Below are positions 1,114 to 27,167 of a stretch of 64,000 nucleotides of DNA, one piece after another. This stretch comes from Schmidtea polychroa. Lineage: Eukaryota. A program made the position numbers and the translations under genes. The notes beneath the pieces are model-generated. The model had not been told where the DNA came from and ran no database searches. It worked only from the letters and a program-made list of their open reading frames with translations. Location of the stretch: contig CM097886.1 of the NCBI GenBank assembly GCA_044892525.1, forward strand, positions 31,496,001 to 31,560,000. Reading direction: 5' to 3'. How positions within the stretch are numbered: the stretch's first letter is position 1; the number at the start of each line of letters is the position of its first letter.

Positions 1114-4100
1114 TGTTGGGGTTACACCTCGGCTGACCATTCTACCATGTTGGCGGGTCTAAGGGTTGATTGTCCATCTCGAATAAAAGGTGCCACCGAT
1201 TTGTCAACCTGGAGTGAAACCCCACATAACTTTCTTCCAACATAGTGCCCGTGAATCACTTCACGTTGGTACTGCACTATGCAGGCGAGACGCCAGCAAG
1301 CAGGTGAGCTTCTGCCTTAAAACTACTCCTTGCTGAGGCCTCGACTTCCCATTCACGACTGCCGATAGAAGGGCTTACGTCCATTTCCTTACACAACCAC
1401 CTATCAGGATTCGCTGAATGCAAATTGGGAAATTCTCACTAGATCTTGCGGGTTCTCTACTCAACCCACTTAATTAAAGTCTAATTATTCATGAACGAAA
1501 ACGTGTAAGACAACAAGATTTATTAATTTCAACGTTATGACACAAGGATTCAGCTGTACACTTTACTAATGTTTGTCGAAAGAAGAGAAAACATCATAAT
1601 CAACATAGATCGGATCCTTGTTCCCCATCCTGACCGCCACTGGGGTTTTATTGTTTCTCCCATTCAGTGTCGGCGAATAATTCGTCGAGGTTGAAAAACT
1701 CGGAAGCGTTCTCTTCCCACCTTACGCCAGCGGCTGATATGATTCGCGCTGAGGGTCCCGTTGTTAGGTCGATGGACACGTGAGAGTTGCCACCGTTGGT
1801 TGAGTCCTCTATTGATGGGATGTTTGGCTTTGCAGTAGCGCGCTCGCGCTGTCTCTTCTTGCGCTCTGCACGAGAGAGTTGTTTACGCTTGGGTTTGCTT
1901 GAAGATGCCACTTGCAGAAGGGTGACTGATACAGATGGACTAGCAGTGGGGGGCTTACTGGTACCCGTGATGACAACGTCTGGACGCTTGGGGGACCATT
2001 CGGTTTCGACGCAGTCTCGGCACGGTCTCTTGAACGGTGGAGATGGATTCGAGGAAAGGTTGTGATGAGGCGGAAAGATGTCATCGGCCTCTCGGATGGG
2101 AATCTGCACGATTTTTCGGGTTGTAGCCGCCTGCACGTAAACCTTATGCAGTGCCTCGGATTGTTCTCTGATTAGACTTCTTTGGGCGCGGCTCTCAGAT
2201 ATTAGCGCGTCCCGGCAATGCTCGCTACGATCGAGCTTCTTTTGGATCTCTTTCATCCGAGCGGGACTAAACCATGTCCCTTCCAGCTCGTCTATCTTCC
2301 TCTTGTAACGTCCAATCTGAGTTTGTAGGTCCTTTATCACCGTATTTTTATCCGCGCACGAGAAGCACGGCCGTAATGCCGATTTAGTGGTTGGTAGCAT
2401 GCTTGCTATAAATAATACTAATGAAATGGAGAACATACGATTTTAGAATAAATTAGATACGACCCGCGTCCATTCGTGGATACTTGACCGTCGAAAAGAA
2501 GGAAAACTTATTCTACAATCCGGCTTTACTACGGATCTTAGTTGTTAAAACAGTTTATTTAACCAAATGCCATCGGCTTGACGCATGTTATTAACTTTGA
2601 CTATCTATTGATCTAACTGTATGCATGAGGGACGTAATAATTGATAGGGTGTAAATATAATATTGGTGAAATAATATAATAATACTTTAGTAGAGGGACA
2701 TTATAGTATGCGACCAAACCTTGCTATATGTTATCTATTTTAATTTATTAAAAACAAATTACTATCGCTCTCAACATATTTTTGATTCGAAATTTGTTAT
2801 TGGAAGTGCACTTTTAATTCGGTAGGGAATGTGATTATCTATATTGTCTACCATTGGTCTGAAAATATGTGATGAGTTTACATCAGCCATTACTTTACCA
2901 CCCTCATGGAAAATCCCATCGGTCATAACATATCCAAATTTACGGATACTGCTGTCGACTGGTTGATTACATTATCGACCTATTGTGAATGTCACGTGTC
3001 GCGACTACTATGTATGCTAGTCTGATATTCTGTGCTCTCACCGCATGGATTCGTGTATGGCTACTATCTTATCTCACTCACTTGGTGTATGCCATTTTCA
3101 CGGTGATTTTATCGATCCTGCTGTTGTATGATTTTCTCTGCACAGTGATTTATTTGAGTTATGATTTATGCTACCGCCAGTTCTCATCGCGGAATTTTAC
3201 CCTTATCAACTTGTGTGAATGATCACCATCGTTTGGAAATTTATTGGATCTTTTCAGTGATCGTCGAGGGAATAATTCTACCAAATACTGGAGCATATTA
3301 CTACTCTCGTCATTCTACTCGGATTTGCCTATTCAGATGTAATGCCGTCTCGATGAAACCTGTCCTTTTCTCTCAGGTTCAATAATTTGGATATATACAG
3401 AGATGACCTGGCTCTTATTGTAGAAATAAATGTTATTAATTAAATTTGGTGATATTTTACCTGTTTATAATTTTTGAAATAACTAAGTCTATAAAAACTT
3501 TCTGATTATAATACTAGAGAGGTTTTCGTAGAATCTCGCATTTTATAGTTTCGAGTTAGTTAAAGTTTTTAGAATACTTTCGTAACTTGACATACAATCT
3601 GGACAGGTTAGATGACATTGGGTCTATGATAATGGAATTTCATACGAATTTAGTTCTACTGAGTCCGGCAAATAGACGTTGTCGCAATTAATTTGATAAA
3701 CCCATGTTTCCAGATGAAGCGTACTATGAGATGTTGTTATTTTTGACGAAGTTCACTAAATCGTGGTCTGGATCTCTTTTTTCAATAGGGGTAAGACTTA
3801 CGAAAACGACTTGACGAAAGAAGAATGCGACGCCCTTAATCACTGTGCAAATCCTTGAAAATCCCTTCATTCGTATGACTATCTTTGTGAAATCATTGTC
3901 TACCGGTTATTTTTTATCCATACCCCATTGTGATAATTTAGTCGCATCTTCAGCGATAGGACCCGTGAAGAAGCCTTCACATTTCGGCCCAATCTAGCTG
4001 CGCGATTGAAATACTCCATGTCCACCGGCTGAGCTCCCGAAGGCACCTCATACCATGACATGGAGTATCTCAACTCCACGTTACTCGTTAAATGAAAATT

Positions 4101-4955
4101 CATAAAATCTTTAATTCAGATAAAATACGGACATCTGGATAAAAATATTTTATTGATTCTGAAATACTTAAATAATACAAATTCCATCAATACGTTAAAG
4201 TTATTAAAATGGAGAATCAAATGAAGAGAGTTAACTAAAATGTTTAATCGTTAATATTTAACATTATTATTAGCTTTGCAAATACTTAAATAAATCTATA
4301 AACAAATGAAATACCCCTTACTATTGTTAGGCTGAGTCAAAATTCAATGTTGTTCGTTCCAAATAGTTCTAATGGTGGTCCGTTGGATGTCGATTATTGT
4401 GATGAATGGTATTTCGGTCTCTGAACTGGTTTTGAATAGTTGTGGAGTTTTCTGAATGACGGTTGCTTGGCTAGTAGTGTCGATCCTATGAAATGCTCGG
4501 GGTTAACAGTAAACAGTAAACATTCTTTCTTACCTATGAAATGCTCGGGGTTAACAGTAAATTTAATGTTTTTGGTAGTTGTATATATATCAAATTCTTA
4601 TTTGTGCGGACCAATCAGAGTTGAGTACCGCTTATTTCTATTAATTTAATATAATTTTCTTGTTTTTAGGTTGTTTTTTCCTTATTTTCTTTATTTTTAA
4701 TATGTTTTTCTATTTATTTCCTTAATTTCCTTATTATTTCTTGAATTCCTCTTTATTTATTTGTCAACTTGTTCTATTTTAATCTTTTCTTAATTTTATT
4801 TTTTTTTGTTTTAATTCTTATGTCTTAATTATTATTTTCCTTATATCTTATTCTATTTTATTTCTGATTTTATTTATTTTATTTTTATTTTTCTTAATGT
4901 TCTACTTCCCCACTTTCTTATTTTTCAACGATTAAATTTTCGACTCAGCCCAACA
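1114..4955 (-). repeat. 3' LTR (3,842 bp)
   Basis: TG...CA ends with a 7 bp terminal inverted repeat. Every ORF-track entry inside it recurs with identical translation 26,054 bp downstream. Confidence 0.97.
1648..2436 (-). CDS. LTR-encoded protein (262 aa), coiled coil plus basic NLS-like tract; 3' LTR copy
   Basis: Longest ORF in the LTR. CFSC and CRDC pairs, ELEGTWF, SKPKRKQLSRAERKKRQR, AATAAA at 1519-1524 (minus). A diverged homologue at 49396-49905 supports coding status. Confidence 0.8.
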   Translation of the reverse strand: MFSISLVLFIASMLPTTKSALRPCFSCADKNTVIKDLQTQIGRYKRKIDELEGTWFSPARMKEIQKKLDRSEHCRDALISESRAQRSLIREQSEALHKVYVQAATTRKIVQIPIREADDIFPPHHNLSSNPSPPFKRPCRDCVETEWSPKRPDVVITGTSKPPTASPSVSVTLLQVASSSKPKRKQLSRAERKKRQRERATAKPNIPSIEDSTNGGNSHVSIDLTTGPSARIISAAGVRWEENASEFFNLDELFADTEWEKQ

Positions 4956-5181
4956 AATCACTCGGGGACCCATCAAAATTGCGTCCCGCAATTGCATAAT
5001 TAACTTAATTCATTCATTCAAAAAAAAATATAACACGAACACTGAAAATTATACAACAATGATAAAAATTTTATTGTAAGATCAAGGTCAAAGCAAGACC
5101 AAGCAAGTATCACTTAAGGTGATAGTTGGTACATACAATAAAAGTTTCCACATATAATAACACAAATGTTTGAATTAGAGT

Positions 5182-5850
5182 TTATGAATTGTTAACCATT
5201 GATGCTTCTGCTGGCGGCTGTTGGTTGGTTTGGGTATTGATGTTGAGATAGGTCTGACTATTAGATTTCGGCTGGATTGGTTGATTACTCGGGGTTCGAG
5301 GTCGGAATGGGGTTGGGTTAAGATTTGTCAGGGGCACTTCTTGAGGATTTTGGTTCGAGGTTACTCTTATTGATGTCGAGATTCTACATCTATTTCGAAC
5401 TTCGTAAATTTTCATGAATATTGGTAGACATAGGAGGAGGGTTTCTGCGATCACCACATATATGAGATAATGGGCGTTATTGATTTCGGGAGGTATTTTT
5501 GGCTTTTCTACCAGATTTCCAAAATTCTCTTGTTGCATTTGTTGTTCCAACTGGTCGAATTGTTGAATTTGTTCGAGGATTTGTTTGTTTATCATTTTAC
5601 AAATGGGATTCTTTTTACACATTGTTTGGATGTTGTTGATGTGTGATCGGGTTGATTGAATGGTTTGGATGATATGGGTTTTTATGGTCATCGGGTATGT
5701 GCATTGACTGGATTCTTGTTTAGGTTCTTGATTTTGATTTCGGTAATCTCGTACGATTTTCGGTTGGGCGTCTATTTGTTTGCTCTCCATCAGAATCATC
5801 AATACCATCATTGTTATCATCATCTCGCCTCGCATGATACTATTATACAT
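5182..5850 (-). CDS. Putative type I membrane protein (222 aa)
   Basis: Met-rich signal-like MMITMMVLMILMESKQIDAQ, ectodomain with Cys, TM YLIYVVIAETLLLCLPIFMKI, P/Q/N-rich tail, AATAAA at 5070-5075 (minus). Confidence 0.7.
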   Translation of the reverse strand: MYNSIMRGEMMITMMVLMILMESKQIDAQPKIVRDYRNQNQEPKQESSQCTYPMTIKTHIIQTIQSTRSHINNIQTMCKKNPICKMINKQILEQIQQFDQLEQQMQQENFGNLVEKPKIPPEINNAHYLIYVVIAETLLLCLPIFMKIYEVRNRCRISTSIRVTSNQNPQEVPLTNLNPTPFRPRTPSNQPIQPKSNSQTYLNINTQTNQQPPAEASMVNNS

Positions 5851-5890
5851 TCATTATGTTTATTTACAATTGGTTTTAATGACCCTTAAT

Positions 5891-6643
5891 TTAATGGTTC
5901 TGATTTGGATTATTTTTGCCGATTCTCATCAAGGTGGACTCTGCTTTAATTACCCTGTGTCTTAACTCGGGCAGCATTTCCAATTGTCGGTCTTTTTCAC
6001 GGGCTTCTCTCTTTAGATGTCTAATTTCTTTTTCCAAGCGTCTAATTTCTTCCCTTTTCTTTTCAAGGTTTCTTTTTAGCTCGATTTGTAGGAGATCTTG
6101 TTCGTTTTCTTGCAGGTAATTTTGTTGTTGATGTTTTCTTTCTATTTCTCTATATTTGCGGACCCACTTCCTCATTTCTTTACTTTCCCGTTGGTTTTCT
6201 TCTAGTTGTCGTTTTAATTTATTTATAGCTGTTTGGCGCTCCTTCGCCTCAGTTTTCCAGTAGTCTTGGATTACCTCCTTTGCTTTGAAGCTTGCCCTCT
6301 CTTTCCATAGTTCTTCCGCTATCTTTTCCCAGTTTTTCCCTCGCTTCCTTTGTTCGTGTAGCCATTCATTTTCCTCTTCCGTTTCTCTTTTTATTTCCCC
6401 CAACGCTTCGCACTCTTTCTTTAACACCTTTATCATTTTCCGGTCCTCTAGGTATTTGTTTATTAATCTCCCGTTTTCGTATTTCTCTTCCCGTAACTCG
6501 GCCTTTAGCGTTTGTGTTTCTGTTGTTTCTGCCTCAATCTCTCCCTCTTCTACGTCGCTCATAATTTCTATCATTTCCTCGATTTTCATATCTATAATAT
6601 GTACAGTTAATGGTGCGCTATAGTGCGACTTATACGTATACAT
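5891..6643 (-). CDS. Coiled-coil accessory protein (250 aa; likely start Met19 at 6589)
   Basis: E/K/R-rich heptads with W residues similar in style to the neighbouring 369 aa ORF, no recognisable family. Confidence 0.7.
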   Translation of the reverse strand: MYTYKSHYSAPLTVHIIDMKIEEMIEIMSDVEEGEIEAETTETQTLKAELREEKYENGRLINKYLEDRKMIKVLKKECEALGEIKRETEEENEWLHEQRKRGKNWEKIAEELWKERASFKAKEVIQDYWKTEAKERQTAINKLKRQLEENQRESKEMRKWVRKYREIERKHQQQNYLQENEQDLLQIELKRNLEKKREEIRRLEKEIRHLKREAREKDRQLEMLPELRHRVIKAESTLMRIGKNNPNQNH

Positions 6644-6771
6644 TGATATAAAATTTAATAGTTTGGGTTACAGTCCCTTGAATACTTTTACAATACTTTA
6701 ATTTTTTTTTTTTTTTTTTTTTGTTTGGGATATACGTCCCGGTTTTTAGTTTTTCATCTTTTCATCCACCC

Positions 6772-7881
6772 TTATACGAAGGTTTCCTCCTGGCCTACAT
6801 AACCTTCATCACTATCGACCGCGGGATGTAACTGTATCGCAATAGGGTCGTATGGTAGGTAATATTGGGGGATTTGAGCTCTCAATTCATTAATTTCGTC
6901 TCTTAGAGCTCGAGTGATGTTCAATTCCTCGTCGAGCAGATAGGTGAGATACCTTGTCTCTTCGTCTTTCGCCTCTATCTGTTTGTCTAGGGCCTTGATT
7001 TTCTCGTCGCCCTTCCATTTTTCAATTTCTATTTCTAAGTTTTTAATATTTTCGGTGTACATTTTCCTTTCGTTTTCTAATTTTCTGTTTTTTCCCGCTA
7101 GGACCATGTTTCTTTGTTCCAGCGATCCTTGTAATCCATTAAGGTCTCTTTTCATCTCTTCTACCTGATTTACTAATTCCACAACCCGTCCCGCTTGTTG
7201 GGTTATCATCTCTTCCATTGCGGCATTCTCGTGCTCTCTTATGTCGCACTTCATTGCCAAATGTCGCTCAAACTCCATAGCCTTTGTTTGCCAGGTTTGG
7301 CTTCGGGCGGCGACCTTTCTCAACCTTTTCAATTCTTCCTTTATTATTAAATTCTCCTCCCATTTACCTTGTTCGCTTTCATATCCGAGTCTCATGGGCA
7401 ATTCTTTCATCTCTTTTTTCATTTCTCTGTTTTGTCTTTTCCATTTTCTCGCTTCTGCCACTAAGTGCATCATTTTCCTGTCTTCTATTTGTTTTTCCGC
7501 TTCGCGCTTGGTGTTCTCATCGGTAAGTCTTTTTCTCGCTTCCTGCACTAGCTGCTTTAAGTAGTGGCTGTGTGCTTCTTGGCGGGTATTTTCTAGTGAC
7601 GCCCATTTTGATGCTCTTTTGCATGCTTCTGCTTCCGCTCTTAAGTTGTGTATTAACCATTGGTATTGACTATTCTCATCTTCTCTAGTTTCTTCGATGT
7701 GATTTCGGGTGAGATTAGTTAGTTGGAACATTACTTTGTTCCATTTTTTATTATGTTCTCGGGGAATTTGTGTCTTGTTGACATTGGTTGGGGCTATCGC
7801 AGTTTCGGTTATTTTCTCTTGTGTCATCTCTAAATCATAGACATCGATTAATCTTTTTATTATGAAAAGGAATTTATTCAT
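6772..7881 (-). CDS. Long coiled-coil accessory protein (369 aa; likely start Met19 at 7827)
   Basis: Open 1.1 kb ORF, E/K/R-rich heptads, same strand as the element, no recognisable family. Confidence 0.75.
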   Translation of the reverse strand: MNKFLFIIKRLIDVYDLEMTQEKITETAIAPTNVNKTQIPREHNKKWNKVMFQLTNLTRNHIEETREDENSQYQWLIHNLRAEAEACKRASKWASLENTRQEAHSHYLKQLVQEARKRLTDENTKREAEKQIEDRKMMHLVAEARKWKRQNREMKKEMKELPMRLGYESEQGKWEENLIIKEELKRLRKVAARSQTWQTKAMEFERHLAMKCDIREHENAAMEEMITQQAGRVVELVNQVEEMKRDLNGLQGSLEQRNMVLAGKNRKLENERKMYTENIKNLEIEIEKWKGDEKIKALDKQIEAKDEETRYLTYLLDEELNITRALRDEINELRAQIPQYYLPYDPIAIQLHPAVDSDEGYVGQEETFV

Positions 7882-8019
7882 TATTTACTGTTTCTTGGGA
7901 AATTTTCGCATCATTTTTGGGTTTTCGTATTTAGGGTTTTCATACTATTATTATATAATATTTTATTGGTTATATACACCGATATATACAGATTATTATA
8001 TACAACATTATTCGATTGG

Positions 8020-9363
8020 TTACTCCGTTCTACCCTTCTCCTCTTTCCTCACGGTCATCTTGATATATATGGTATCATTTCCTGTTGCTGATCCTTCTTC
8101 GTTGAGGGGCCTCTGGTAAGCTATTTGATTCCCCGTTGTTTTGAAGCTTTGCTCATGTATACTTTGGTTGTTCATCAGAGTAATATCGATTTTTGCCTGG
8201 AACGGCCATTCTAATATTTCGTCGTATTCTCCTTTACATAACAGAAAGAAAATCGAAAAGTGCGTATCCAATCCGGTTCCGTCCCCGTTGGGATATACCT
8301 TCATTTTCATTTTGTACCCATTTTTCCAAGAATGGAATGTAGGACTTGTTATTCTTGTCTCTTCTCCGGTTTTTGCTTTTCGTATTCTTTCTTTTACTCC
8401 CGTTATTTTCCATATGTAGGGTGCTGTTGGGGTTATCTCATTTAGATTTATTTCCCGTATTTTCTGATGTAGCTCCTTGGCCTGATTATTACTGATTTCT
8501 GTTCGGTTTATTTGCATCTTTATGTTTGCTCGGGCTTCTTCGAACGCTTCCCTTTCTTCTAGTAGTTCTTTGACTAACACTTTCAACGATGTTATCTCTA
8601 TCTCCATTTGTTTTACTTTCTCTTCGCTTTCTTGTAGCGCAGTCGACCACATTTCTGCGTGAGTTGAAGCATTTTCTACTAAATGATGTGGTAACTCACC
8701 TCGGTGTAGTAGTTTCTGACAACCCCATCTACCTAGTACACATGTCATTCTTTTCTTTGCGCATTCCCTTAGATGCTGTGCCACCTTCATTATTTCCCCT
8801 TGGTTACATCCGTTTGGGCATTCCCCACTGAACTCTGCACATACTCTCTCCTCTTGGACATTGTGATGTTTGAGGGTGAGATTTATCCACGTATCTATTT
8901 CTCCACAGTGTTCACATCTTTCCAATCTCTCTTCACACTGCCTTTGATGCTCTTTTTCTTCGCTTGCTCGAATGGTTTTATGGCACCTTTCACACTGGCC
9001 AATTCTGTACATACATTCTCCCATATGTTGTACTACCTTCCATATTACTCCTTTCCATTCGCATGGGGCATTTTTGCATCCCAGGTTGGTGTTTAACATG
9101 TCTTTCACTGCGGCTTTATCCTCGTTAGTGTCTTCTAAACTCGATATTAGTGTCTCTTTACACACCGGGCACCTCTGTGGTCTATTCTTTATTGCTTCAC
9201 TGATACATTCTTTACATACTCTGCATCCACATTGCGTTTGGTGAGGTTCCTTTAACAACTTTTCACATATTCCGCACATAACATGTTTGTGTATTCTGAT
9301 CGTTGTAGATTTTCGGACTTGCTCGACAATCTCTCTGAACTCTTCTCTTTGTCGTTTATCCAT
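8020..9363 (-). CDS. Intronless TRAF-family protein (RING, TRAF zinc fingers, coiled coil, MATH)
   Basis: CGICEKLLKEPHQTQCGCRVCKEC...CPVC; CKNAPCEWKG; CEHC; CPNGC; YIWKI...SPTF...GYKMKMKVYPNGDGTG..THFSIFF....GEYDEILEWPF. The MATH C-terminus looks shortened. Confidence 0.93.
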   Translation of the reverse strand: MDKRQREEFREIVEQVRKSTTIRIHKHVMCGICEKLLKEPHQTQCGCRVCKECISEAIKNRPQRCPVCKETLISSLEDTNEDKAAVKDMLNTNLGCKNAPCEWKGVIWKVVQHMGECMYRIGQCERCHKTIRASEEKEHQRQCEERLERCEHCGEIDTWINLTLKHHNVQEERVCAEFSGECPNGCNQGEIMKVAQHLRECAKKRMTCVLGRWGCQKLLHRGELPHHLVENASTHAEMWSTALQESEEKVKQMEIEITSLKVLVKELLEEREAFEEARANIKMQINRTEISNNQAKELHQKIREINLNEITPTAPYIWKITGVKERIRKAKTGEETRITSPTFHSWKNGYKMKMKVYPNGDGTGLDTHFSIFFLLCKGEYDEILEWPFQAKIDITLMNNQSIHEQSFKTTGNQIAYQRPLNEEGSATGNDTIYIKMTVRKEEKGRTE

Positions 9364-9448
9364 TCTATAATTATATGTACAAATAGTTCTTATCGATACA
9401 GGTTCGATATTTTATTTACAATTATTTACATTTTAAGCTAGGTTTGGT

Positions 9449-9808
9449 TTAGGGTTCGGAAGAGTCGGCTTCGTGCCCGCTCTCCTCTCTATTCATTAGC
9501 CATTCCGACCAGTCTTCTATTTCTGTCTGTTCTGCTTCCTCCCTCATTCGGTCTATTTCAATTTCCTGTCGACGGCTATATTGGGTTATCCTCTCTATCT
9601 CTCTTTGCATTTGTTCGATTTTTAACCTCTGGTCTTCAATTATCTTCAAATAACTAAATCCTCTGTTCATACTCTCGATCAGGTTTCTGTGCATCGTCAG
9701 TCCTTGTTCTTGCAAATTGGACACTAATTGTGCTAATACGGCACATTGTTGCTTCCATAATTCTTCAGTTACTGTATTGTGGTTCATTTCGTTATTTCCT
9801 TGATCCAT
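9449..9808 (-). CDS. Small coiled-coil accessory protein (ATG start at 9808; ORF track starts at 9832)
   Basis: Q/E/R-rich heptad sequence, same strand as the element, acceptor-like AAATTAG before the ATG, AATAAA at 9411-9416 (minus). Confidence 0.6.
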   Translation of the reverse strand: MDQGNNEMNHNTVTEELWKQQCAVLAQLVSNLQEQGLTMHRNLIESMNRGFSYLKIIEDQRLKIEQMQREIERITQYSRRQEIEIDRMREEAEQTEIEDWSEWLMNREESGHEADSSEP

Positions 9809-9968
9809 TCCTAATTTATATACACTTTTCAACTCTTATGTAAATTTAATTTTATTTTATGATTCCCGTTATTGTATAATATTGATACCGCGCTTATATA
9901 GAGATATAGTACTGTTATATACATAAGATATACTTACTTTTTACAATTATATACAGTCATATTCCTTT

Positions 9969-12900
9969 CTATATACGTGAGTTTGGAGGGCGCTGAACGT
10001 TCCAGGCCTCCACCCACTGTCCTTGTTTGATATCACTTGGTCGTTTCACTCGATGTTGGAAGTTTCTGATTCGGGTCATTTCTAGTTCTCCGCGATGTCG
10101 TTTATCTTTAATTATTTTTATTGTTCCCCCCGTTATGATTAGGAATGCCCCTGTTATTATTATCCCACTGATCCACATCATCTGCTTCACGCTTATACTC
10201 TCTGGTTTTTCCTTGTTGGTTAATGTTGATATCGCTTCTGTACTTTTCTCGTTTCCTCTTTTGCCATTTCCTTTCATCATTTCCCGTATTCTTGCTATTT
10301 CCTCGTTCATACCCTCCTTTGCCATCTTTTGTATTTTTTCCATCTCTTCCTCCGAAACATAGTTGTCCTGAGCTTCCTCACCAGTTTTCTTGTGCTTTCC
10401 TCCTTCGTTCTTTTCGTCGTGGTTTTTTCTTTTCTTTCCTCTTTTCCCCGGGTATCGTCGGCATTCTCTTTTTGATTCATTCCTCCAGATACAAACCGTG
10501 TATTCTTTCGGCGGCTGCTGCTGCGTCACATATTGATGGCATCTCTCACCTGGTCCTAATCTTGAAATACAGACTTTGTGCTCTTTTCTAGGTTGGATCT
10601 GCGTTATTACTACTTCACCACCTTTTCCTAGGTGTACCTCTTTTCCTTTGACGTTCGTTATTCTCTTCCCGTCTCGATTTCGGTATGCTTCTTGTATTCT
10701 TACTTCTGTTATTGGTTCTGTGTCCTCATTTATCAGTACTAATTTCTGATACGCTCTAGACATGCATCTTCCTAGTATGCACTTTTCCTTTAAGTCCCAT
10801 TCTTCCTTTAAATCCCACTGCTGCTCTTGTGCTTGCTTTCTCTTTTCTTGTTTTAGTTCATCCTCTTTGCTATCTTGATTCTCCGCTTCTTTGGTTTCTT
10901 TTATCGTTCTCGTCCCTCCCTGAGCTGTTACTAACTCTATCATGGTAAGCATAATTATCATTAATATCATATTTGTCTCTATTTCTTTGTTAGTGAAAGG
11001 TAGGCATACCCTCTGTTTTCCATTATTCGATTTTTCCTCCTCTTTGGTCTTGGTTCTCGGGCTGTTTCCCTCTCTTTTCGTATCCGAATCCTTGTTTTCT
11101 GGTTTACCCTCCTCCGGTTCTCTTTTCTCTTTATCCTCCTTTCGGTCTTTTCCGTTATTGTCATCGTGTTTATCTCCCTCGCTGTCATTTAAAATGTCGT
11201 CCTCGACATTTATATCGCTCAATAATCTGCGATATGCTGTTAGCACTCTGTTTCTTGCTAATTTTGCTTCGAATTCAAACTCTTTTCTACCCGTTGCAGC
11301 ATGTCTCTTTCTATTCCATTCTTTAACTAACTCTCTCAATTGCATACGACGATGTTTCCCAATTCGTTGTTGCTCGTTCTGATTTTGCGTGAATTTTAGG
11401 TCTTCTCTATTTAATACTATTAAAATAATTTTAGGCGTCCCCCCCTTAGTTAGGGTATTCTTTACCATCGCATTTTCTCCGTTTTCGTAGAATTCGTTTA
11501 CATTTATCGCATATTTATTATTTGGTGGTACTCTCCAGGTTAATAATAATTTCATTGCTTCTAGATTTTTCCGTACCGTATTCCATTGAAACTGAGATGT
11601 GTTTTTGCACATATTTTCAACTTCTTCTTCTGTCGCATTTTTGCAAATAAATCTGATCATTTCTAAGTTTGGCTGTATGGTTGCCCAGTCCAAGGTGGAA
11701 TTTCCTTCATTGGACCTTTCGTCTAGTTTCGATCCTGATTGATGTAGGATGTGGAGTGTTTTTGGGTGTATTTTCGTTATAGCTGCATACATCATGGCGG
11801 TTTCACCTTGTTCATTTTTCGTGTTGGTTTCCTCGCCCATCTCCCCAAGGATTCTCATGATCGTTATTGCTCTATTCTCTTTTGCAGCTAGTATTGCTTG
11901 TTGTAGGGGTGTTCGGGAATCCTTCGTTACCATCGTAAATGCTCGAGGCAAGAAGGTTTTGATTTTCCCGATATCTAAACCCGTGGTTTGATCTCTTGCG
12001 TATGTGTGTACGGCTTTTATTATTTTGGACAATATTATTTCGTCTGGCAGCTCTAGCATTTCCTCAAAGAACACTTCTTTTGCTTTGCGTATTATTGCCT
12101 CTTGATCTATACTCATTGATTTGGTTTCGATGACGTTGTTTGTGACCGTTCGGTTCGTTGTTGACTTTGATTCCCTGGATTTCTCATACCTTATTTTCGT
12201 TTTCTTTCCGTTTGGATTATTGATTCGTTCCTCTGCTGTAAGTATTTGGATAATATCCATGTAATTCTCGCGGATGTTATTCATCGTGTCCATCATATAT
12301 AACACACTTACTGTTTCCCAATATTTATGTCGTACTTGGTTAGTAAATTGGAATAGTGATTTTTCGAATGTGTCGATTCGCTTTTTTGTTAACTGTTCGT
12401 CTTTGTGATTTGTGAATTTTATCCCTCGTTCTAGTAATTGATTCGGGATTTCGAATAAATGATGTCCTTTCATAGCTTCTCTCATCAGCGTGTTCTCTCC
12501 TCTCGTGAACGCTTCGTTTACGTTGATCATATAATCGTTTCGAATTGGATTTCTCCATGTAATTAATATTCCGGTAATTGTCGTCAGTTTTTCTTTGATC
12601 GCTGTTAGCAATCCATCATACATGTTTCCGACTTCCCGATTGTCCTCATATGATAGTAGTTCCATCAATGACGTGAACGCCTCGGTACTTCTCCCTCTGA
12701 TAGCATGATGTAGAGCGTTTTTCCGCTCGTGGTCTTGTGTAGTTATTTTCGATCCGGTATCGAGTAATGCGGTTATAATGTCTTTTGTTTTGCCTCTGTT
12801 TGCGGCCATCATTAATGGTGTGTAACCTTGGTTGTTTGTTTGTTCTGTTGATCGCTTGCAGTCGTGAAATGCTTCTATTGTTTCTAGTATTTGCTCGTTG

Positions 12901-15900
12901 TTACCTACTTTCATGAGTTTGTGTAATGGTGTGTCTCCGTAATGATCTGTTATTGTAAATAATATTGGCCATTGGCTTTTGACTACTCGCAATAATGGGT
13001 GTGTCCTTTCTCTATTTGCATAGTTCTCGATCATCGTCAATAATCCTCCTAATATTTCGAAATCTAATCGATCTTTCGCCCATCCAGGTATTTTAATTTT
13101 TACCTCTTTTACAATCTTTTCCGCTTCTGATGGTTGGATACCTAATCGTCCAGTGATCGGTTCTGCGAGTTGTTGCATCATGTTCATTCGGTAGGTTTGC
13201 GAACGTGTGGTTAATGTACGGCCTTCTGGTTGACTAGTGGCTGTTTTTGGAATTGATTTGCATCGTGCCACGTTTACGTATATTGGTCTGGTAAAGGGGT
13301 TATTTACCAATTTCACTCTTACATTAGTTTCGCCTACGAATAAGATCTCATATGGTCCTTTTCCGTTGCGTTGTAACTTTTTTGTGGTTCCTGGAATTAA
13401 TTCCGGGGTTTCTATCATTACCCAATCACCTGTTTGGAACGTATGTTGCTTCACGTTTTTCTTTCGATCGTGTAAATCTTTATAACTTTCCTGGTAGAAC
13501 TTGATATTTAATCCCGCAGTTTCCCAAATTTCTTGCATTCTTTCCTTGAATTTCGTAACATAATCATCGATCTCCATATACTGCGATATCGGTGGTTGGT
13601 ATTCCAGGTCCATTGGCATATTACATTCTCTTCCGTACATTAATTTGAATGGGCTCATTTTCGTTGATGCGTGAATCGACATTCTGTACGCCATAAGACA
13701 TAGGTTTATATATTCGTCCCAATCTCGTTGGTGACGGTCAACGTAGTTTGATAACATTTGTATAAGTGTTCCATTAAATCTTTCCGTCATCCCATTGGTT
13801 TGAGGGTGGTATGGAGATGTTCTTAGTTTTGCTATTTTGAAGTAATTTGTTACTTCGCTCATTATCTCACTCATAAAATTTGTTCCCTGATCGGTTAAGA
13901 TTTGTTTTGGTGTTCCATATCGGCAACATATCTCTTCTACCAAAATTTTTGCGATTGTTTTAGCTTTTTGGTCTGGCATCGCGAATGCTTCTGGGAATTT
14001 CGTAAGAAAGTCTGTGATCACCAGAATGTAAACGTTTCCTTTATCTGACTCTGGTAGTGGACCAACTACGTCCATGGATATCATTGTCATTGGTTCTATT
14101 GGTACTGGCATTGGCGTTAAAGGTGCTTTCCATTTCGATCCCGTATTCTTCCTGGTTGCACAAGTTAGACAATTTTTTACCCATTCGGTTACATCTTCCG
14201 TTAACGTAGGCCAAAAATATTTCTGTTTCATTCTTGCTAACGTCTTTTTCGATGACATATGTCCTCCCAATCTCCCATCGTGATATTGCGTTAGTAACTC
14301 TTTTCGTCGGTTTTCCGGTATACACATTAATCGTTTTTCCCCATCCATTATCAGCAACCAATCTTTCTCTATAATATATCGGTGTCGGTGTTTATCCATA
14401 TGTTCTTTTAATTTTTGGTCTTTCGCATATACATCTGTCTGTCCGGTTTTTATATAATCGATAATTTGTTTTAATTCCGCGTCCTCTTGTTGGTCCTTTC
14501 GCAATTGACAGAAATCCAAATCTTCCGCTACTATTAAGCATATGCGTTGCATTTCTGAATCCACCAAATCTGGGAAAATAAATCTTGACATACAATCGGC
14601 GTTGGCATTTGCTCTTCCCGCTTTAAATTTTATAAATGGGGAGTATTCTTGCAATTGCATGGCCCATCTCATCAGTCTACTGGACGCTTCTTTATGTTGC
14701 CCTAACCACACTAATGGTTGATGGTCTGTGGTTATGCATATCTCATGTCCCCATAGTAAATATCGGAAGTGTTTGATAGCTTGTATTATAGCCAATGCTT
14801 CTCGTTCTGTTACCGAATAGTTCTTTTCGTGCTTTTTGAATGTTCGACTGTAATACCCGATTACTCTCTCTTTTCCCTCATCGTCCAATTGTCCCAGAAT
14901 CGCGCCTGCCGCGTACCCGCTTGCATCCGTTGCCAATAGAAATGGCTTCTTAAAATCTGGGTGTACGAGGATAGGTGCTTCGATTAGTTTGTCTCTCAGC
15001 GTTTCAAACGCCTCTTGTTGTTCCTTCCCCCATAAGAACGAAATGTCCTTCTTTACTAATTCCTGGATTGGTTTTGCAATTCCTGCATAATTTTTGATAA
15101 ATTTGCGATAGTATCCGCATAATCCTAGAAATTCCTGAACTTGGGTGACAGTTTTCGGTGCTGGACATGTTTTTATTTTCTCAATGTTTCTTGGATCTGG
15201 CTCCTTTCCTTTAGCTGACACTATGTGTCCTAAAAACGTGACTTTTTCCTTTGCCCAATCGCATTTTGATGGTTTGAGTTTGAGTTTCCACTGTCTTAAT
15301 CTAATAAATACGTTTCGGATATCTTCTAGATGTTGTTCAAATGTCGCTGAATAGATTAGTAAATCATCAATATATACCATACATTGTTTGATTCCATGGG
15401 TGACAAAGTTCATACACCGTTGAAATGATGCTGGTGCGTTAGTCAGTCCAAATGGCATTTTCCTGAATTGATATAGATCTCGTCCCAACGTGAAAGCTGT
15501 TTTCTCTTTGTCCTCATCTTTGACTTTAATCTGCCAGTATCCACTTTTTAGATCTAAAGAAGTAAAATATGCTGCCCCTTGCAACATCAATAACATCTCA
15601 TTGATGTCCGGCAATGGATAGGTATCTCTCTTGGTCACTGCGTTTAACTTCCGATAATCGATACAGAATCGTTGGGTGCCATCTTTCTTTTTCACCATGA
15701 CCACTGGGAATTGCCAGGGTGAGCAACTTGGTTCGATTACTTTTGCGTCTAGCATCTTTTGTACTTCTGTTTCGGCTATTTCTTTCTGCATTTCTGCTAG
15801 CTTGTATGGTCTCAATGCAATTGGGGTTTCGTCTATGAGTGGTATTGCATGTAAGGTAACATCACATGTACCCAAGTCTAAATCTGAGATGGCGAATATA

Positions 15901-18900
15901 TCTTTATATTCTACCAACAATCGGTGCAATTTTTTCTTTTCGTCATTCGTCAACAACATACTATCTATTGTCCATAATTCATCATCTTTGATCATCTCGT
16001 TGGTCACTTTCGGTAATTCTATGTCCATCATTGGGGTCAATCTTCCCAATTTTTCGTTCTCATAAATGATTTTGTCTTCCTCTTCAAAATTCGTGATGTT
16101 GAGCGGTATCACTCCTTCTTGGTTTATTGTGATTATTTCTCTTGCGAGTGGTAATTCTCGTCGCTTTTCAAATGACTTGCTTGGTTCAAAGATAACTTCT
16201 CCTTCCATACCCGTATCCACTTTTATCTGACAAATCATCTGTGATTTTGCTGGTACTATTATTTTTTCTGGACATCTGATGACTGCATTCATTTTGCATA
16301 TTCTACCGGTTTTGTCTTTTAAACACATGGTTGTTAAGTCAATTACGACTTCTTTTAACAATTCTGGCATCAAATCCGTTCCGATTATGCATGGTACGCT
16401 AAGTTTTGGTATTACTGCCAAATACGTTTCAATTTCGTTGTCCTGGTATCTCAATGTAGTCCACCATCTTCCGACCACGTCCACTGTTTCTTTACTACAT
16501 GCTATGATGTGAATTGTTGTTGATTCGATATCCTTCCAGTGTTTACTGGGGATTTGATTAATCGCTATCGCTGATACATTAGCTCCGGTGTCTATCATAG
16601 CATTGGTTTCTTTACCATTGATTTGAATCATAACTGTTACTGCTGGACCTCCAGGTAAACTCATCGCTGCTATTGTTCTTACGTCATCTGCTTGATCTAC
16701 ACTTTTGGTACGTCGTGTTGGCATATAATGCATACCGGGTTGACTCGGTAATTGCGGATACATATTTTGTGTCATGGTCAAAGCTGTTTGTGGTCCCACG
16801 ATATCCGGTGGTATATAGCTTCCATTGGCGATCCAGGTGTTTGTCTTTTCCTTTTCCCAATATGGTGCCGTTTCCATTGGTTTTTCGTTTGGGTTTCTGT
16901 TTGGATAAAGACATTTATCGTTCCCGTTATCATCGTCGTCACTATCGCTGTTAGATGATTGGCTTCTAAATCGGTCCAAGAATTTTGGCTTATTCTTTTT
17001 CAATTGTCGTCTTGTTGCTTCATCGTACATTACTTTCCGGAATCGTCTGCCTACTTCCTCGTCGGTTCCTTTAATCTTTGTTAATATTTTAATCAATCGC
17101 TTTATCCGATGAATGTCTTTTGAGTGGCCATGTAATACCATGGTCTTAGCTAAAAATGGTAAGAAGCCTACTATCATTTTCCAATTAACTTTCTTTTCCC
17201 GCTTGTATATATCGAAACAAGCTAACATTTGTGTTAGTATTACTCTGACTATCTGAATTATGAGTATGATCCCTAATATCCCGGCCATCATTTGTCCAAA
17301 AACTAAGAATCTTCCCCACATTGCTTTCATCATGTTTGACGTAGCTTGTTGAAAATGGTCTGGCGATAATAGCAGCTCGTAATTCGGGCCTGATTGATAG
17401 TTTGTGCCCCCAGTTATTGTTACCATATTAGACAAAATGGATTCTCGTCTGGCTGGGAAGAGTACGTTAAGTCGTGCTGTTTCTAGATCTTCTGGGGAAT
17501 ACATACCACCGTTTGACACGTCTATAGGTTTGAAATCCAGCTCTGTGGCGAGTTCTATTAATCCAAATTTCTTGGGCTCCTCGGATATGGTTTTTCCCGG
17601 TAACATCATCCATTTCCCATCGGGCCTTTCATATAAAGGTCCGTATGCATTAGAACAGTTAAAGAGATTTGGGTAGAAACCCACTGGATTCATAATTCTA
17701 GTGACTGGTTGGACGAATCGATTTTGTCCTTTATAACGGATTTCTAATTCATTTGCACATCTCTTTTCGGGTAGTATGGATTTTTCTGGCATTCGTGCAT
17801 ACGTCTTGGTACACTGGTATGTGTACATCACTTCTCCTACCATTCTACCAAAGTGTCCATCTGGTAATGGGAGTGATGGCATCGTGTTATCTGGGTGCGT
17901 TATCGCAATAGCTAGCTTTGTTTTCAATATTTCTTTATTCAATGAACAATCGTTTTGTATTAGATCGTAATATACTTTTTGCAAGGTCGTTTGTCCGCGA
18001 TGAAATAGAAAATCCATTTTATTATTTGCATATAAGTATAGTTTTACGTCCTCCGTTGCTATCTTTCCCACTGCTCTATCGATTATTTGTCTCGACATAT
18101 AGATACCTGCGTAATTGGTTTTATATACTATACTGTCACATTTGGTGGTTTCTTTCTCTTTGATAAATCTCATACCTAGATCTGGATCGTCTGTGATTAA
18201 TGCTGTTGGTGTCTTCTGCGTTGAAAGTCTCTTTTCTCTGGGAGATGGTGGCATTGGTTTTCCATTTCGCATTCTCACTCTGTCGTTTCCATCCTCGTCG
18301 TTCTCGTTCTCATATATTTCTCCTTTTACTTCATTGAACAAAGCACTTTTTAACAGTTGGAGTCGGCATTTTTGGGTATTAGCTTCATAGATTATAGTTG
18401 ATACTCCTGTCCTGCATACGTTTTCTGTAGCTCTACACGTTGGGTTGGTCTTCATTTGGTAATTATTTGCGTCAAATTGCGCTTCGTATTCTTTTAATTC
18501 GACCGTGTAAGACTCGATCACTACAACTCCCGATATTACCTCGCCTCGGATCGTATACGTACCTCCGTTACATGACCCATCTGATGATTTTACTTTTCCG
18601 GATACGTAAACACTTTCGGTTTTAATCATTCCAGTTTGTCCGTGAATTGTCACTCCGTTATGCATTTTTAGCGCTCCGGTTCTAAATAGTTCTTTACAAT
18701 CCTCTCGTTGTATTGATACGATTTCTTTATCCAGACCGGGTAGTATAAGAGTCGAATACGAATATTGTCCACAGTAATATGCGAGTACCTTTTTTGATAC
18801 TACGCATTCCCTTGCTTGCGTTCTGATGAAATCTGATTCTTGATATACATGGTAAGTAACTTTTGTTCTCACGATGTCCAATTTGTTGGGTGAGGCTTGT

Positions 18901-21900
18901 CTGCATTCTTCTATGTCTCTCAATGAGTATTTATCTCTCATTATCATATTATCACAATCGTAGATGGTAAAACCCGTTGCTCCACTTGTGCACAACATCC
19001 ATATCATCATAGTCATCATTAACGAATTTATTGATGCTTTTCTGCTTGCGGGATCTTTCATCGGTAGTTCCCATTCTAGTTCATTTAACAGTTTTTTCAA
19101 TCTAACTTGCATCGACCTTTCTTGCTCATTTTTCCGTGGCGCTTGTATCAGTCTTTTCCATCCTCCTGCACGAATAATGTGTGGTTCAATAGTATTCTCT
19201 ATGATTGAAACGGTCATTTCTACATGATTTGCAAACTGTTTATTTGGTATTTTCCTCGCAGCTAGTCCCATCAAATTATACATCAAATAAGTGATTACCA
19301 CTAGGTGATGCTCGTCATCATTTGCATTTGTCGTGAGCTGCTCAATCACTCTCTTTGTTTCGTCCCAATCCGTTTTGGTGGTTTTCGTTTTCTCTTTGAT
19401 TAACTTTGGGATTATCCCCGAAATGGTGTGCCATAATTGTCTAGCTTCCGTACTGGCTACTTTCCGTTGCCACAAACGTCTAAGTTGTGGGTTTGTTATT
19501 ATTAACATATCTTTTAACAATTCTCGTATCCATTTTTCTCCTCTTTCGATCGTTGGTTGGGCTTCCTTTAGATCCCATACTATTTTATCCAATTTTTCTA
19601 ATCGAACTTGCCCTTGTTCTTGCTTTAATTGTTCTTTGGTTTTGAACTCAGACTTTTCTCCTTGTTTCTTGGGTCTTCCTTTTGCCCGTTTTTCCATCAT
19701 CGTTCCGGCTTCTCTGGTATTTTCGTAATTCGGATTTCTTTCGTTATCCGTTCTGGGTAATGAGCTATCGTTATTTCTTAGCCACTCATTCCATTCGTCT
19801 ATTATTTTGTCGGTTTGACTTTCTGGTGTTACTTTCGTTGGTTCTCTTTGCTTCTGGAATTGTTCATCCGTTTCGGTTTCCGTAGTATTGTCGATGATTT
19901 CTTTGATGTTCAGTTTCGTTGGTTGTTGATAACTCGTTGATGGCTGGTTATTAGTCCACATTTCGGCTCCTGTCGGCCATCTCACTAATAGCGGTGATCT
20001 TTCTCCTGGTTCATCGTCACTATCTTCCAGGATTATCTCTTCAACTTCTTCAGTTTCATTAGATTTACTTGGTGCTTTGTTCGGACTTGGAGTACTCAAA
20101 CTGCCTTTTGTTGGTTTAATAATTTTACTTTTCCTTTTTAACGGTTTTCCCAACGTTTCTGCCATTGTTAATACATTTGTCTCTTCCAATCTCATGGGGG
20201 TTATCCCGACGTCTGCATTATCGTCTAGTGATTTTCCGAACAGTTGCAGATGGAATGGAGTTTCATATGCTAATTTCTTTTTTAATTCTCTAATTTTTGT
20301 TGTTGGATGCACCTCTAGTTCCTCGATGCTCTTGTCTGGATACTTGATTCGGATGTGATACCTCTCCTGGGTGTCTTGTGCCCATTCCTGATTTCTCCAT
20401 TTTCGAATAATTTGTTCTAGCTGTTCTGGATACCATTCATTATATTGCCGGTATTCCTCTATTGCCTTTGCCATTCCTCTCAGATTGTGGATGTCCTCTG
20501 ATGTCTTTAAGATGATGTTAGCCAACGCTACTACTTGGCGTCTTTGATTTTTCGCTCCCATTGCTAAGATATCGCCTAATTGTTTATATCTTTCTTTCTC
20601 TTCTCGTTCTCTTGCTTCCGTCGCTTCCTCGCCGTCCATATCAGCATATTCACGTTCCTTTTTCCTCATTGCATGAATATGTCTCGCTTCATTTTCGCTT
20701 TCTGATGTGACATCCGTCTCGCCTTCGTCATCTGATGTCTGTTCCCTTGCTTCCTCTTCATATTTTGGAGGTTCCTCTTCTTCTTCCTCCGATTCACTTT
20801 CTGTCTCACCAATGTCTGTTTCCACGAAGGTTCCTTTCCGGATTTCCCATTCCTTACTTTCTGCATTCCACACTCTTTCCCATGGGGTTCGTCTGCAGGA
20901 TCTGGTGCTTAATTTCGTGATTTTTCCTTGTAGTTCTTTTTCTTTTAACCATTGTTGGTGGATTTTAATTATTTCCGTAGATTTTTGATATAACGTTTTC
21001 ATCCGGTCTCGTATTTCTTTTTGATAGGTTACATCTCTTGTTCGAAATTCATCCATTGGTACTATCCTGATTATCTGGTGATTGTCCCACATACCCATTT
21101 CGCTTAACGAGGTGTCGTCCTCCGCTCGTAATATTATCTTATCGTACATCATGACTACATCATCCACCATACCATCACTACTTTCGCTACGTACCTTTTC
21201 CGTTATCTCTTGGTTTATTTTTGATACCAAGTCATCTACTGTACTCTGATTGCTCATTTTTATTCGTCGTTTTTCTTCGTTCGGTAACCATATGGTTATT
21301 TCCAACCTCTGTGGCTGGGTTTCTTTTAACCTTCCATATTTGTGGATCAAATTTATGGTTCTCCAATCACTCATTCGGAGCATTTCTGTATCTCGCAACC
21401 GGCTCATTAGTTCGTACATGGCTGGGGCTCGTCTGGTGATGAGTAAATCCCAGTTGTCTTCTACTTGTTCTTGAATTTGTTTGATCAGCTTATCCAGGTT
21501 TCGTCTCAGAGTACATTGTTTTATTTGTTCTAATTTCAATTTGATATTAAAATCATATTCTGCCTTGGCATCTTTAGCCCAATCGTAAAGGTTGGCTGGT
21601 TGTTTTTCTTTATGCAACTTCAGTATTTGCGTTTCTCCTGGCCATATTAGTGCATCTACTAAGTGCATATCTGGTTTGATCTGTTCTCCTTGGTATTGAT
21701 ACAGATATTCTTTCTTTCTCGAACTTCCCAAATGCTCTCGTATCCAATCGAAAAGTTCGTCGGTGACTGTATTTTTTATCCACATTCTTTCAAGTCCTCT
21801 ACTCGTTCCGATTTTTATTACATACCGCGTGGTATCGGCCTGCTTCATTTTTTCCATATAATTTTTTATAATTGATTTTTCCTCGTTTGGTATTAAATCT

Positions 21901-23822: not shown

Positions 23823-25129
23823 GATTGGTGTTCTAGGTTCGTCTGTTTCTTTTAAATTGTCTAACGATGTGACTAAACTTTGGGCTGATAATTCCTCGGT
23901 TGACGTTGCTAAACTATTAGTGATATCGGACAGACTTTCTCTACTTCGAGATCGACTAGGGGTATATCCGAGATTTTCTTGGTCAAATATGGGTACTTGA
24001 TTGGTTCTTCTGGATCCTTGTGATATTCCTCTTTGATGTTTAATGGATCGTCCTCTTTTGAGTTGTTGTAATTCGTCTCCTGAAAATAATACGTCTCCTG
24101 GCTTACTAGAAGATCTAAGATTGGGTTTATCCGTGATTCCTTTCTTACGCTTCTTGGTAATTAGCGGCTATTGAATTGGACGCGTTCGGTTCTGATTGTG
24201 TTTCCTTCGATAAATATTCTGTATGAATCTGCTACTGAGATCCTGAGGAGATTTACTAATCCTTGGCAGATGGCTGCTAATACTTCTTCCGTTCTGGAGT
24301 CTTCCGGTTGCTGTGTCTCTCGGTGCGGGTTCTGAATGGATTTATCCTTGGTTGATTGTCGATTTCTTCGAATTCCTTTTGTGCAGGTTCTGGATTGTCT
24401 TGGTTGGCTGGATTGGCTTGATATCTAAAATGAAAAAATGATCTCGTGTTGCATTTGCTTACACGACTTCATCATTCTTTCTACAACATTCAAAAACAGA
24501 CGCCTTTTAGGTTTCTGTTTGTGCTTCCCCTATCTTTTTGTGAAATCCTTTCTGCGGGTTATAATATCCCATCAGCCCGTATTTTCCGTCGATTTTAAAT
24601 TATCTATATGGGGTAGTAACAATTATCTATAAAGTCGTAATAATTATCTATTCGTTATCAATTATAGTAAAAATAGGTCGTTGTCAGTCTCTGCTTATTA
24701 CCCCCCTTCGTTTTCTTATTCCTTTGCGCTGTTGTCGCTGTTTTACTTTTCGTATTTACTATTATCCCACTCGGTTCTACTCTGGAACCGGTAAAAATAC
24801 ATTTTCCCGGTTTACAAAAAAAAAAATTCCGTAGAGTTTCTCTACTTCACTGGGATCCCTTTAATTAGTTAGTTACTTTCCTCTTTACTCATTATCATCA
24901 TTTCATCTATTCTTTATTTTCTATTATCTCTTTAATTCGTTTCCTTCTTCCCTTTCCTTTTTCATTATAATCTTATTTTCTTTTCCACGAGCTCGTTTAT
25001 TTCCTCTCTAAACTCGAATTTTCAAAATTACATTCAATTTGTTCTAGCTAGCTTTAATATTCCATATCACTAGTAATTTAAATATTATCTCATTGTAGCT
25101 TAACTGCTATCTCTCGCTTTTCTAGGCCT

Positions 25130-25759
25130 TTACGACTGGCTGGCACTATTCAACAGCTCAATCTTCTTCCTTCTGATCGGTTAGACTATTCAACAACTCG
25201 ATCTTACGACTGGCTGGCACTATTCAACAGCTCAATCTTCCTCCTTCCTGATCGGTTGGACTTTTCACAACTCGACCTTACGACTGGCTGGCACTATTCA
25301 ACAGCTCAATCTTCTTCCTTCTGATCGGTTGGATTATTCAACAACTCGATCTTACGACTGGCTGGCACTATTCAACAGCTCAATCTTCCTCCTTCCTGAT
25401 CGGTTGGACTTTTCACAACTCGACCTTACGACTGGCTGGCACTATTCAACAGCTCAATCTTCTTCCTTCTGATCGGTTGGACTATTCAACAACTCGATCT
25501 TACGACTGGCTGGCACTATTCAACAGCTCAATCTTCCTCCTTCCTGATCGGTTGGACTTTTCACAACTCGACCTTACGACTGGCTGGCACTATTCAACAG
25601 CTCAATCTTCTTCCTTCTGATCGGTTGGACTATTCAACAACTCGATCTTACGACTGGCTGGCACTATTCAACAGCTCAATCTTCCTCCTTCCTGATCGGT
25701 TGGACTTTTCACAACTCGACCTTACGACTGGCTGGCACTATTCAACAGCTCAATCTTCT
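25130..25759. repeat. Tandem array of 8.5 x 74 bp units alternating two variants (148 bp higher-order unit)
   Basis: Units start TTACGACTGGCTGGCACTATTCAACAGCTCAATCTTC at 25130, 25204, 25278, 25352, 25426, 25500, 25574, 25648 and 25722 (partial). A units end CTCGATC and B units end CTCGACC. Confidence 0.95.
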
Positions 25760-26339
25760 ATATTCCTCGCTCTGCATGCTTCTATTTCTCTTTTCTTCTT
25801 TTACTCTAGTTTACCATTTTCTCTGTCTACTTTTAATTTGTCGACTTAATCTTTACCGCTTGGGAGTGTTTCCCCTTTCCCCCCTTGCTCAAAACGTACG
25901 ACGATCGCGATGATCCATTTCTACCTTGGCATGGTGATCAGTCATGTCGCAAAAACTTCTCATCATATGCGATGGTACCCCGCCCTACGCTTCTTACTTG
26001 GGTTGATCAGTTATCCCCTCCCAACGGGTTCTTGCAATAAGACGTACCGCCCGAAGGTGGCTCGGTTTGTACCCCTGCAGTCTATATTGGGACTAATTCC
26101 ACGTTATTCAACCCTCTCTTCATTTGATTCCAAAAAAAAAAAAAGGAATAAAACAAAACAAACACGCAAATATTCATTCGTCATGCAAATTTTATTAGTC
26201 CTAATCATCAAAACTTTTTAAAGACGAATTTTTTTTATCATAAACATAAAGATTGAATCATTAACAGTACGTGTTACTTCAACAATTTCATGCATTCTTG
26301 TTCAAACATCGTATACTTGCCGTTACATCGCCGGCCGTT

Positions 26340-26825: not shown

Positions 26826-27142
26826 AGCTGTTGGAAAAGTAATGTTTTAATAATATGTAGTAAATTAATAGTTAATTCGTTAATTGGTTTCTTTAACCAT
26901 TGTTAATTATTTAATTTGACTACTTTATCTCCTTTATTTATATATATCCTTAATTTTTCTATTATCTACATTTTGATTTTCTCTACTTAGTTCCTAATAT
27001 AATTTAATAATCAATAGTCACTTTGCATTCGTCAAGCAATGGTCGGTTGAAAATAGAAAATCGATGTGATAAATCCCTTTAATTTTGTATGAAACTCCCG
27101 GTGAATTTCGCATTCGTTAATAGAAATTTCGATCGACTGTAG

Positions 27143-27160
27143 ATCCCGGCTGAGCCCCCA
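27143..27160 (-). promoter_or_regulatory. Primer binding site, tRNA-Pro type
   Basis: Minus strand reads TGGGGGCTCAGCCGGGAT, 7 nt inside the 5' LTR end. This is 16/18 identical to the classical tRNA-Pro PBS TGGGGGCTCGTCCGGGAT and complementary to a tRNA end ...ATCCCGG-CTGAGCC-C-CCA. Confidence 0.85.
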
Positions 27161-27167
27161 AAAATCA

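Follow-up and report, generated by a model that had tools for sequence, protein, structure and literature searches.

An uninterrupted open reading frame (ORF) encoding a TRAF protein lies on the minus strand at positions 8020–9363 of a 64,000-nucleotide stretch of the Schmidtea polychroa genome (contig CM097886.1, positions 31,496,001–31,560,000; hereafter the window). A first-pass annotation, made from the letters alone, had described an intronless gene with an unusual Cys-for-His RING and a trimmed MATH domain, and had proposed a retro-captured host TRAF that may be dominant-negative or retargeted. The locus raises the question of whether a mobile element has reshaped a host signalling adaptor for its own use. 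We estimate the probability at about 80% that the ORF is the TRAF cargo of a Burro element, captured once and long ago from a host TRAF with an all-Cys RING, and that the window copy carries a private deletion predicted to cripple its MATH domain. Both headline oddities are ordinary: the trimmed MATH reflects the decay of one copy or an error made in copying it, and the Cys RING is characteristic of the host lineage.

The TRAF gene and its carrier element

The domain order of the TRAF family is present in a single intronless frame, as had been claimed. Pfam locates the RING at residues 29–68 and the TRAF MATH domain at residues 316–431 of the 447-residue product, and the alignment and structure models supply the parts between them. 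The features of the gene are as follows.

8020..9363, minus strand: TRAF accessory ORF, 447 aa here and 462 aa in sister copies
9160..9276, minus strand: RING, residues 30–68; all eight zinc ligands (8/8) are Cys
9223–9225, minus strand: Cys47 of the RING, at the position that is His in most animal TRAFs
8659..9096, minus strand: TRAF-type zinc fingers, residues ~90–235, from the alignment and models
8449..8658, minus strand: coiled coil, residues ~236–305, from the structure models
8044..8418, minus strand: MATH/TRAF-C domain, without most of the seventh strand and the next helix in the window copy
8080..8081, minus strand: junction of the private 45-bp in-frame deletion, with a microhomology of 2 bases

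Among solved structures, TRAF1, 2, and 3 are the best relatives of the MATH domain, whereas the RING and zinc fingers come closest to TRAF5 and 6. The mammalian TRAF1/2/3/5 proteins are the best solved relatives of the MATH domain both by sequence (E 1.5e-24) and by fold (TRAF3, E 9.4e-20), but they possess the RING His, the serine triad, and more zinc fingers. The window RING reads CGCRVC, whereas the solved human and fish TRAF5 and TRAF6 RINGs read CGHRFC, and thus the substitution noticed at first sight is real. The jump noticed in the MATH domain is equally real, since exactly 45 bases are absent in comparison with the sister copy L002. All of the sequence features described for the ORF are present; what fails is the reading of them as special to the element.

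The ORF resides in a complete long terminal repeat (LTR) element.

1114..31009, minus strand: whole Burro-type Gypsy LTR element, 29,896 bp, with TG...CA ends
1110–1113 and 31010–31013: 4-bp target duplication CTCG flanking the element
27168..31009, minus strand: 5' LTR, 3,842 bp, with a 262-aa ORF at 27702–28490
1114..4955, minus strand: 3' LTR, identical to the 5' LTR over 3,842/3,842 bases, with a 262-aa ORF at 1648–2436
26340..26825, minus strand: 161-aa ORF with a C3HC4 RING (PF13920, E 3.4e-11), upstream of the polyprotein
9969..23822, minus strand: 4,617-aa polyprotein with Gag, zinc knuckles, fusion glycoprotein, protease, RT, RNase H, integrase, and ankyrin repeats (Pfam)
5182..7881, minus strand: three further accessory ORFs (369, 250, and 222 aa)

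Because the LTRs are identical over their whole length and both the ends and the target duplication are intact, the insertion is very young. With its size of about 30 kb, long LTRs, Gag-Env-PR-RT-RH-IN order plus ankyrin repeats, Env in frame between gag and pol, and MATH/TRAF cargo, the element matches the Burro/GYPSM1-type giant Gypsy LTR retroelements; the assignment is by description, at the level of the kind of element rather than of a named family (Burro1–4). The 161-aa ORF bears a RING that we take to be of the IAP-like kind. Pfam searches detected no BIR domain, an accessory feature of such elements, in the 11 listed ORFs that were scanned, a lone RING ORF being the only related match, and gave no match above the cut-off for the 369-, 250-, and 222-aa accessory ORFs, the first of which is under purifying selection.

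MATH_TRAF_C is among the cargo reported for the Burro/GYPSM1 giant Gypsy-like retroelements of planarians (PMC6431247, citing Jurka 2007 and Grohme et al. 2018), and TRAF/MATH cargo in Burro elements is thus already known. The available text of that paper describes elements that share with ours a length of about 30 kb, LTRs, one huge ORF, an Env between gag and pol, ankyrin repeats, and MATH_TRAF_C; there the domain lies within the polyprotein, except in Dugesia tigrina, where it occupies a separate accessory ORF upstream of the polyprotein. In contrast, the present element carries a whole RING–zinc finger–coiled coil–MATH TRAF placed downstream of the polyprotein, and it differs further in the missing BIR match. 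The same text addresses neither selection nor where the TRAF came from. Neither a full-length TRAF gene under selection nor a single capture was described in the literature searched, which did not extend to Grohme 2018, Lee 2026, or supplements, so that the claim is a weak one; the supplements of those two papers may already describe this ORF.

Some further features of the element and the window were observed. The element leader contains a tandem array with a 74-base period (24982–25869). The spacers before the accessory ORFs (9809–9968, 9364–9448, and 7882–8019) are AT-rich with repeated TATATAA-like words, and two of them end in AG just upstream of an ATG; they may be internal promoters or splice acceptors. 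Outside the element, a 169-aa ORF (49396–49905) lies in a repeat (49330–49902) whose relative in L097 weakly matches it (E 6e-7), and a 743-aa ORF with three broken ORFs (58587–60818 and 61152–62776) looks DNA transposase-like by eye.

Two related families were found in the genome. A second Burro-type family (L081–L085, L100–L104, and L113) carries a 474-aa TRAF, which is 29% identical and likewise has the Cys form of the RING; behind it lies a 392-aa ORF that combines a BIR-like part (recognised by eye) with a RING. In the third (L087 and L088), a lone MATH domain lies inside a 4,791-aa open frame, and its groove is nearer to those of host TRAFs. A set of 479-aa frames was considered as a third TRAF family and rejected; they belong to a diverged subfamily of the same element, whose polyprotein is ~85% identical.

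The all-Cys RING and the origin of the gene

The RING had been regarded as unusual, a view that the host genome does not bear out. Cys occupies position 47 in 50/50 element copies (48 CGCRVC and 2 CGCRAC), and likewise in the diverged subfamilies and the sister element family. Among the host TRAF RINGs, which were found in 27 of 33 non-element sources picked by MATH score, Cys was present in 28/28, including a host gene in the window itself.

36976..37575, minus strand: host TRAF-like RING–zinc finger exon, also with Cys for His

Genome-wide, the pattern CGCR[FY]CxxC gave 233 matches and CGHR[FY]CxxC gave 0. Five of the 233 CGCR[FY]C matches were sampled, and all five are host-type RING and MATH genes, two of them with element polyprotein pieces a few kb away. 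Among 151 library proteins retrieved by a full HMMER search, 24 had Cys, 75 had His, and 52 had no RING match. Twenty library proteins were looked up for naming and 6 carried a species name; among the Cys forms, names could be given to Dendrocoelum lacteum TRAF-2, -4, and -5 and to three echinoderm TRAF3-like proteins. The element TRAF thus lacks the His fourth ligand of a C3HC4-type RING, which is not a defining feature in the planarian lineage. Cys itself can ligate zinc, and the structure model of the undeleted copy is confident around Cys47. Inheritance from the donor TRAF is the best reading of the Cys RING. The searched literature gave no account of a His-to-Cys change across the planarian lineage. 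The echinoderm proteins (P0041, P0058, and P0084) group with His-type TRAFs despite their Cys, and therefore the change likely arose more than once.

The planarian host TRAF-like family, to which Dendrocoelum TRAF-2, -4, and -5 belong, shares with the element TRAF the domain order, the Cys RING, a single open frame in a number of paralogues, and about 28–31% identity. The element TRAF differs in being mobile and multi-copy, in having no serine triad in the family of the window element (family A), and in the placement of its eighth ligand after a plain C-x-x-C. In several host TRAFs, one open frame of 454–476 aa covers everything from the RING through the MATH domain, with no Burro polyprotein match nearby, and the closest host genes by BLAST score (L031 and L033) are of this kind. 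Since these host genes also lack interruptions, the absence of introns from the element TRAF is not diagnostic of passage through an mRNA.

The element TRAFs were compared with host paralogues by phylogeny, one of the checks suggested for this locus. They form one clade in three trees (SH-aLRT 97 and 100, and 100/99 in the careful tree), and this clade sits with the planarian host TRAFs, separated from those of other animals by a branch with supports of 96, 99, and 100/100. The first tree used 62 of 110 rows, with one long-branch His-type row landing on the planarian side; the quick tree used 40 of these 62, after 22 long-branch or redundant rows were dropped; and the careful tree used 22 rows. 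In a MATH-only tree, the polyprotein-embedded MATH of the third family falls in the same element clade (86/93). An independent second capture of this embedded MATH, which is 48% identical to that of host L031, was considered and not upheld, the support for its joining the element MATHs being moderate. The best trees nest the elements among the host paralogues at 85/83 and 87/85; branches are long, and the AU test does not reject a tree in which the elements are the sister group of the planarian host TRAFs as a whole (p 0.29).

The trees support capture from a planarian host TRAF, and a single ancient capture common to the three element lineages is likely. The donor would already have had an all-Cys RING, and template switching is a likely capture route for an LTR element. 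The proposed retro-capture from a host mRNA therefore stands in part: the gene is element cargo and groups with planarian TRAFs, but its intronlessness, offered as a sign of an mRNA origin, is no proof of it.

The RING–zinc finger exon at 36976–37575 has a likely partner, a MATH exon with a splice acceptor 2.5 kb to the left of the window (L096:7460–7990), and no other RING exon was found between the two. The element thus likely sits in an intron of this host TRAF-like gene, in the same orientation.

The deletion in the window copy and selection on the full-length gene

The ORF of the window and that of L002 show 0 mismatches outside the missing 45 bases. In a protein search of the genome, in which 94 of 1,991 candidates were scored with a bias toward whole copies, the window copy spanned 1,341 bases and the other 93/93 scored copies spanned 1,386; one of these 93 contains a stop. 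The segment was present in 49/49 other translated copies, a set made up of the 29 best-scoring ones and 20 from the most diverged of those scored, and is retained across all subfamilies, down to 69% identity. As exact patterns, the undeleted junction has 95 genomic matches and the deleted junction has 1, the window's own. The trimmed MATH domain is thus damage private to one copy of about a hundred, a decay event or copying slip. The first-pass annotation had itself named a deletion unique to this copy as grounds against its proposal.

A structure prediction of the MATH domain, which had been suggested as a check, was made with AlphaFold2 using 83-row alignments. The undeleted copy L002 was modelled with a complete eight-stranded TRAF-C sandwich (pLDDT ~90 or more). 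In the model of the window protein, strand E423–434 and helix H435–441 are gone, seven strands are left, and residues 413–428 fall below pLDDT 50. Strand 7 of MATH belongs to the receptor-binding site (PMC6125299), and because the lost strand is part of this site, the window copy is predicted to be unable to bind receptors. The models suggest that the deletion cripples the receptor-binding MATH, which would make the window copy a probable by-product incapable of binding. Real template jumps and end joining typically leave a clean loss of this sort, here 45 bases with 2-base microhomology. The deletion probably arose from a template jump in the last reverse transcription or from repair after insertion, and it has not spread.

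The rates of substitution across element copies, another suggested check, revealed conservation of the full-length gene. Pairwise dN/dS against L002 was 0.13–0.27 for 20 more diverged copies, 0.11 (95% 0.08–0.16) at dS 0.62, and 0.06–0.08 at saturating distance; in the deepest pairs, some domains have reached dS saturation. By domain, dN/dS was 0.08 for the RING, 0.13 for the zinc fingers, 0.17 for the coiled coil, and 0.08 for MATH, values that resemble those of the ankyrin region (0.07–0.15) and are looser than that of RT (0.01). The full-length TRAF of the family is under purifying selection in every domain (dN/dS ~0.1), and therefore the full-length protein is useful for the spread of the element.

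Two explanations give the gap a different meaning. If it were an error of assembly or consensus calling, the animal's own copy would be full length; the perfect identity with L002 elsewhere in the ORF fits this, as do the contigs of four public runs, which contain the undeleted form only and break at the junction, none bridging the gap. Contigs, however, drop rare variants such as one copy in about a hundred, and the microhomology at a clean breakpoint has the look of a true event, so that we consider such an error unlikely. Contigs of two runs guessed to be RNA covered the ORF in 30/30 bins (X7) and 18/30 bins (X8), with 2 in X10 and 0 in X11; these contigs may be DNA, and their coverage speaks neither for nor against expression. 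Five contig joints within the ORF are each an unexplained single contig, with no splice form. The other explanation is the original one: evolution within the element would have produced a TRAF with a trimmed MATH and a Cys RING that serves as a weapon, either dominant-negative or retargeted. Because the loss preserves the reading frame and spares the RING, zinc fingers, and coiled coil, poisoning of TRAF oligomers by this one copy is conceivable in principle; hetero-oligomers formed through TRAF RINGs and coiled coils are known (PMC5702613), and a copy so young has had little time to spread. The copy counts nevertheless largely refute this explanation: the deleted form stands at one junction against 95, all other scored copies are full length, every subfamily keeps the missing segment, and the Cys RING is the host norm. 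A trimmed dominant-negative design is not borne out, and we regard it as highly improbable.

The receptor groove and the possible role of the full-length protein

A weaker form of the retargeting idea survives at residues of the full-length gene other than those first noticed. At the positions of the serine triad (defined in PMC6125299), three subfamilies of family A have Q-I-A, L-V-C, and Q-L-C and hence no Ser, while the first Ser is kept in six of seven single-frame host TRAFs. In the Arg/Tyr polar pocket of family A, Tyr is kept and Arg is Lys or Arg; as a whole, the groove does not qualify as a TRAF1/2/3/5-type site. The loss of the triad leaves room for changed partners. In the RING, the residue after the second Cys is Glu or Lys in the element and Leu in TRAF6, where the Leu is presumably needed for Ubc13 binding.

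These replacements raise the possibility that the full-length TRAF is a decoy or retargeted adaptor, which keeps the fold but has partners differing from the usual TRAF receptors and dampens signalling. We hold this only tentatively: host TRAFs are also without that Leu and vary widely in the receptor groove, the sister element family retains a Ser in the triad, and dN/dS shows conservation with no burst of change. Even if correct, the decoy would refine our preferred explanation of an anciently captured, conserved TRAF cargo and not replace it. The direction of transfer might also be the opposite, with the intronless host TRAFs domesticated from the element. In favour of this, seven host TRAFs placed in the trees are single frames from RING to MATH; however, no sampled host TRAF falls inside the element clade in any tree, and several pair closely with proteins of the library, those of Dendrocoelum among them, which makes the reversed direction very improbable.

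With capture of a host TRAF by the element as the preferred reading, the full-length protein may be expected to act as a TRAF adaptor, trimerising via the coiled coil and MATH and dimerising via the RING. It would enter host complexes through these same contacts, given that TRAF RINGs and coiled coils form hetero-oligomers (PMC5702613), and would tilt host death or stress signalling toward survival of the element-bearing cells, presumably beside the element's other RING and ankyrin cargo. A pro-survival role is suggested by analogy, being borrowed from the Burro1 IAP and from RNAi of host TRAF-like genes, which are reported as required for cell survival (PMC7586133 and PMC8807557). Burro1 is reported to be expressed (PMC8532177), and its B-IAP is described as anti-apoptotic and protective of stem cells (Lee et al. 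2026, as cited in PMC13465017). As far as these sources describe it, B-IAP resembles the element TRAF in being a host-type cell-death regulator on the same kind of element, and the sister family adds a BIR-like and RING ORF after its TRAF; it differs in being an IAP rather than a TRAF. After B-IAP, the element TRAF is the obvious second candidate for host manipulation or mutualism. One could speculate, with some reserve, that an ancestral Burro captured one all-Cys TRAF, that purifying selection has since preserved it in its descendants both as a free full-length gene and as a polyprotein MATH, and that in family A the serine-less groove marks a mobile, retargeted TRAF that rewires stem-cell survival together with IAP-type cargo.

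An active element carries some hundred full-length TRAF genes that are nearly identical and under selection, and therefore counts of the expanded planarian TRAFs and TRAF RNAi experiments may include element genes. An expanded TRAF-like family in planarians is already in print (PMC6109357). In the present genome, large arrays (C1 at ~2–17 Mb and 258–261 Mb, and C2 at ~110–124 Mb) consist of host TRAF-like genes that contain introns and bear the CGCR[FY]C RING, and the host expansion appears to exceed what could be resolved with the 121 transcripts cited for S. mediterranea.
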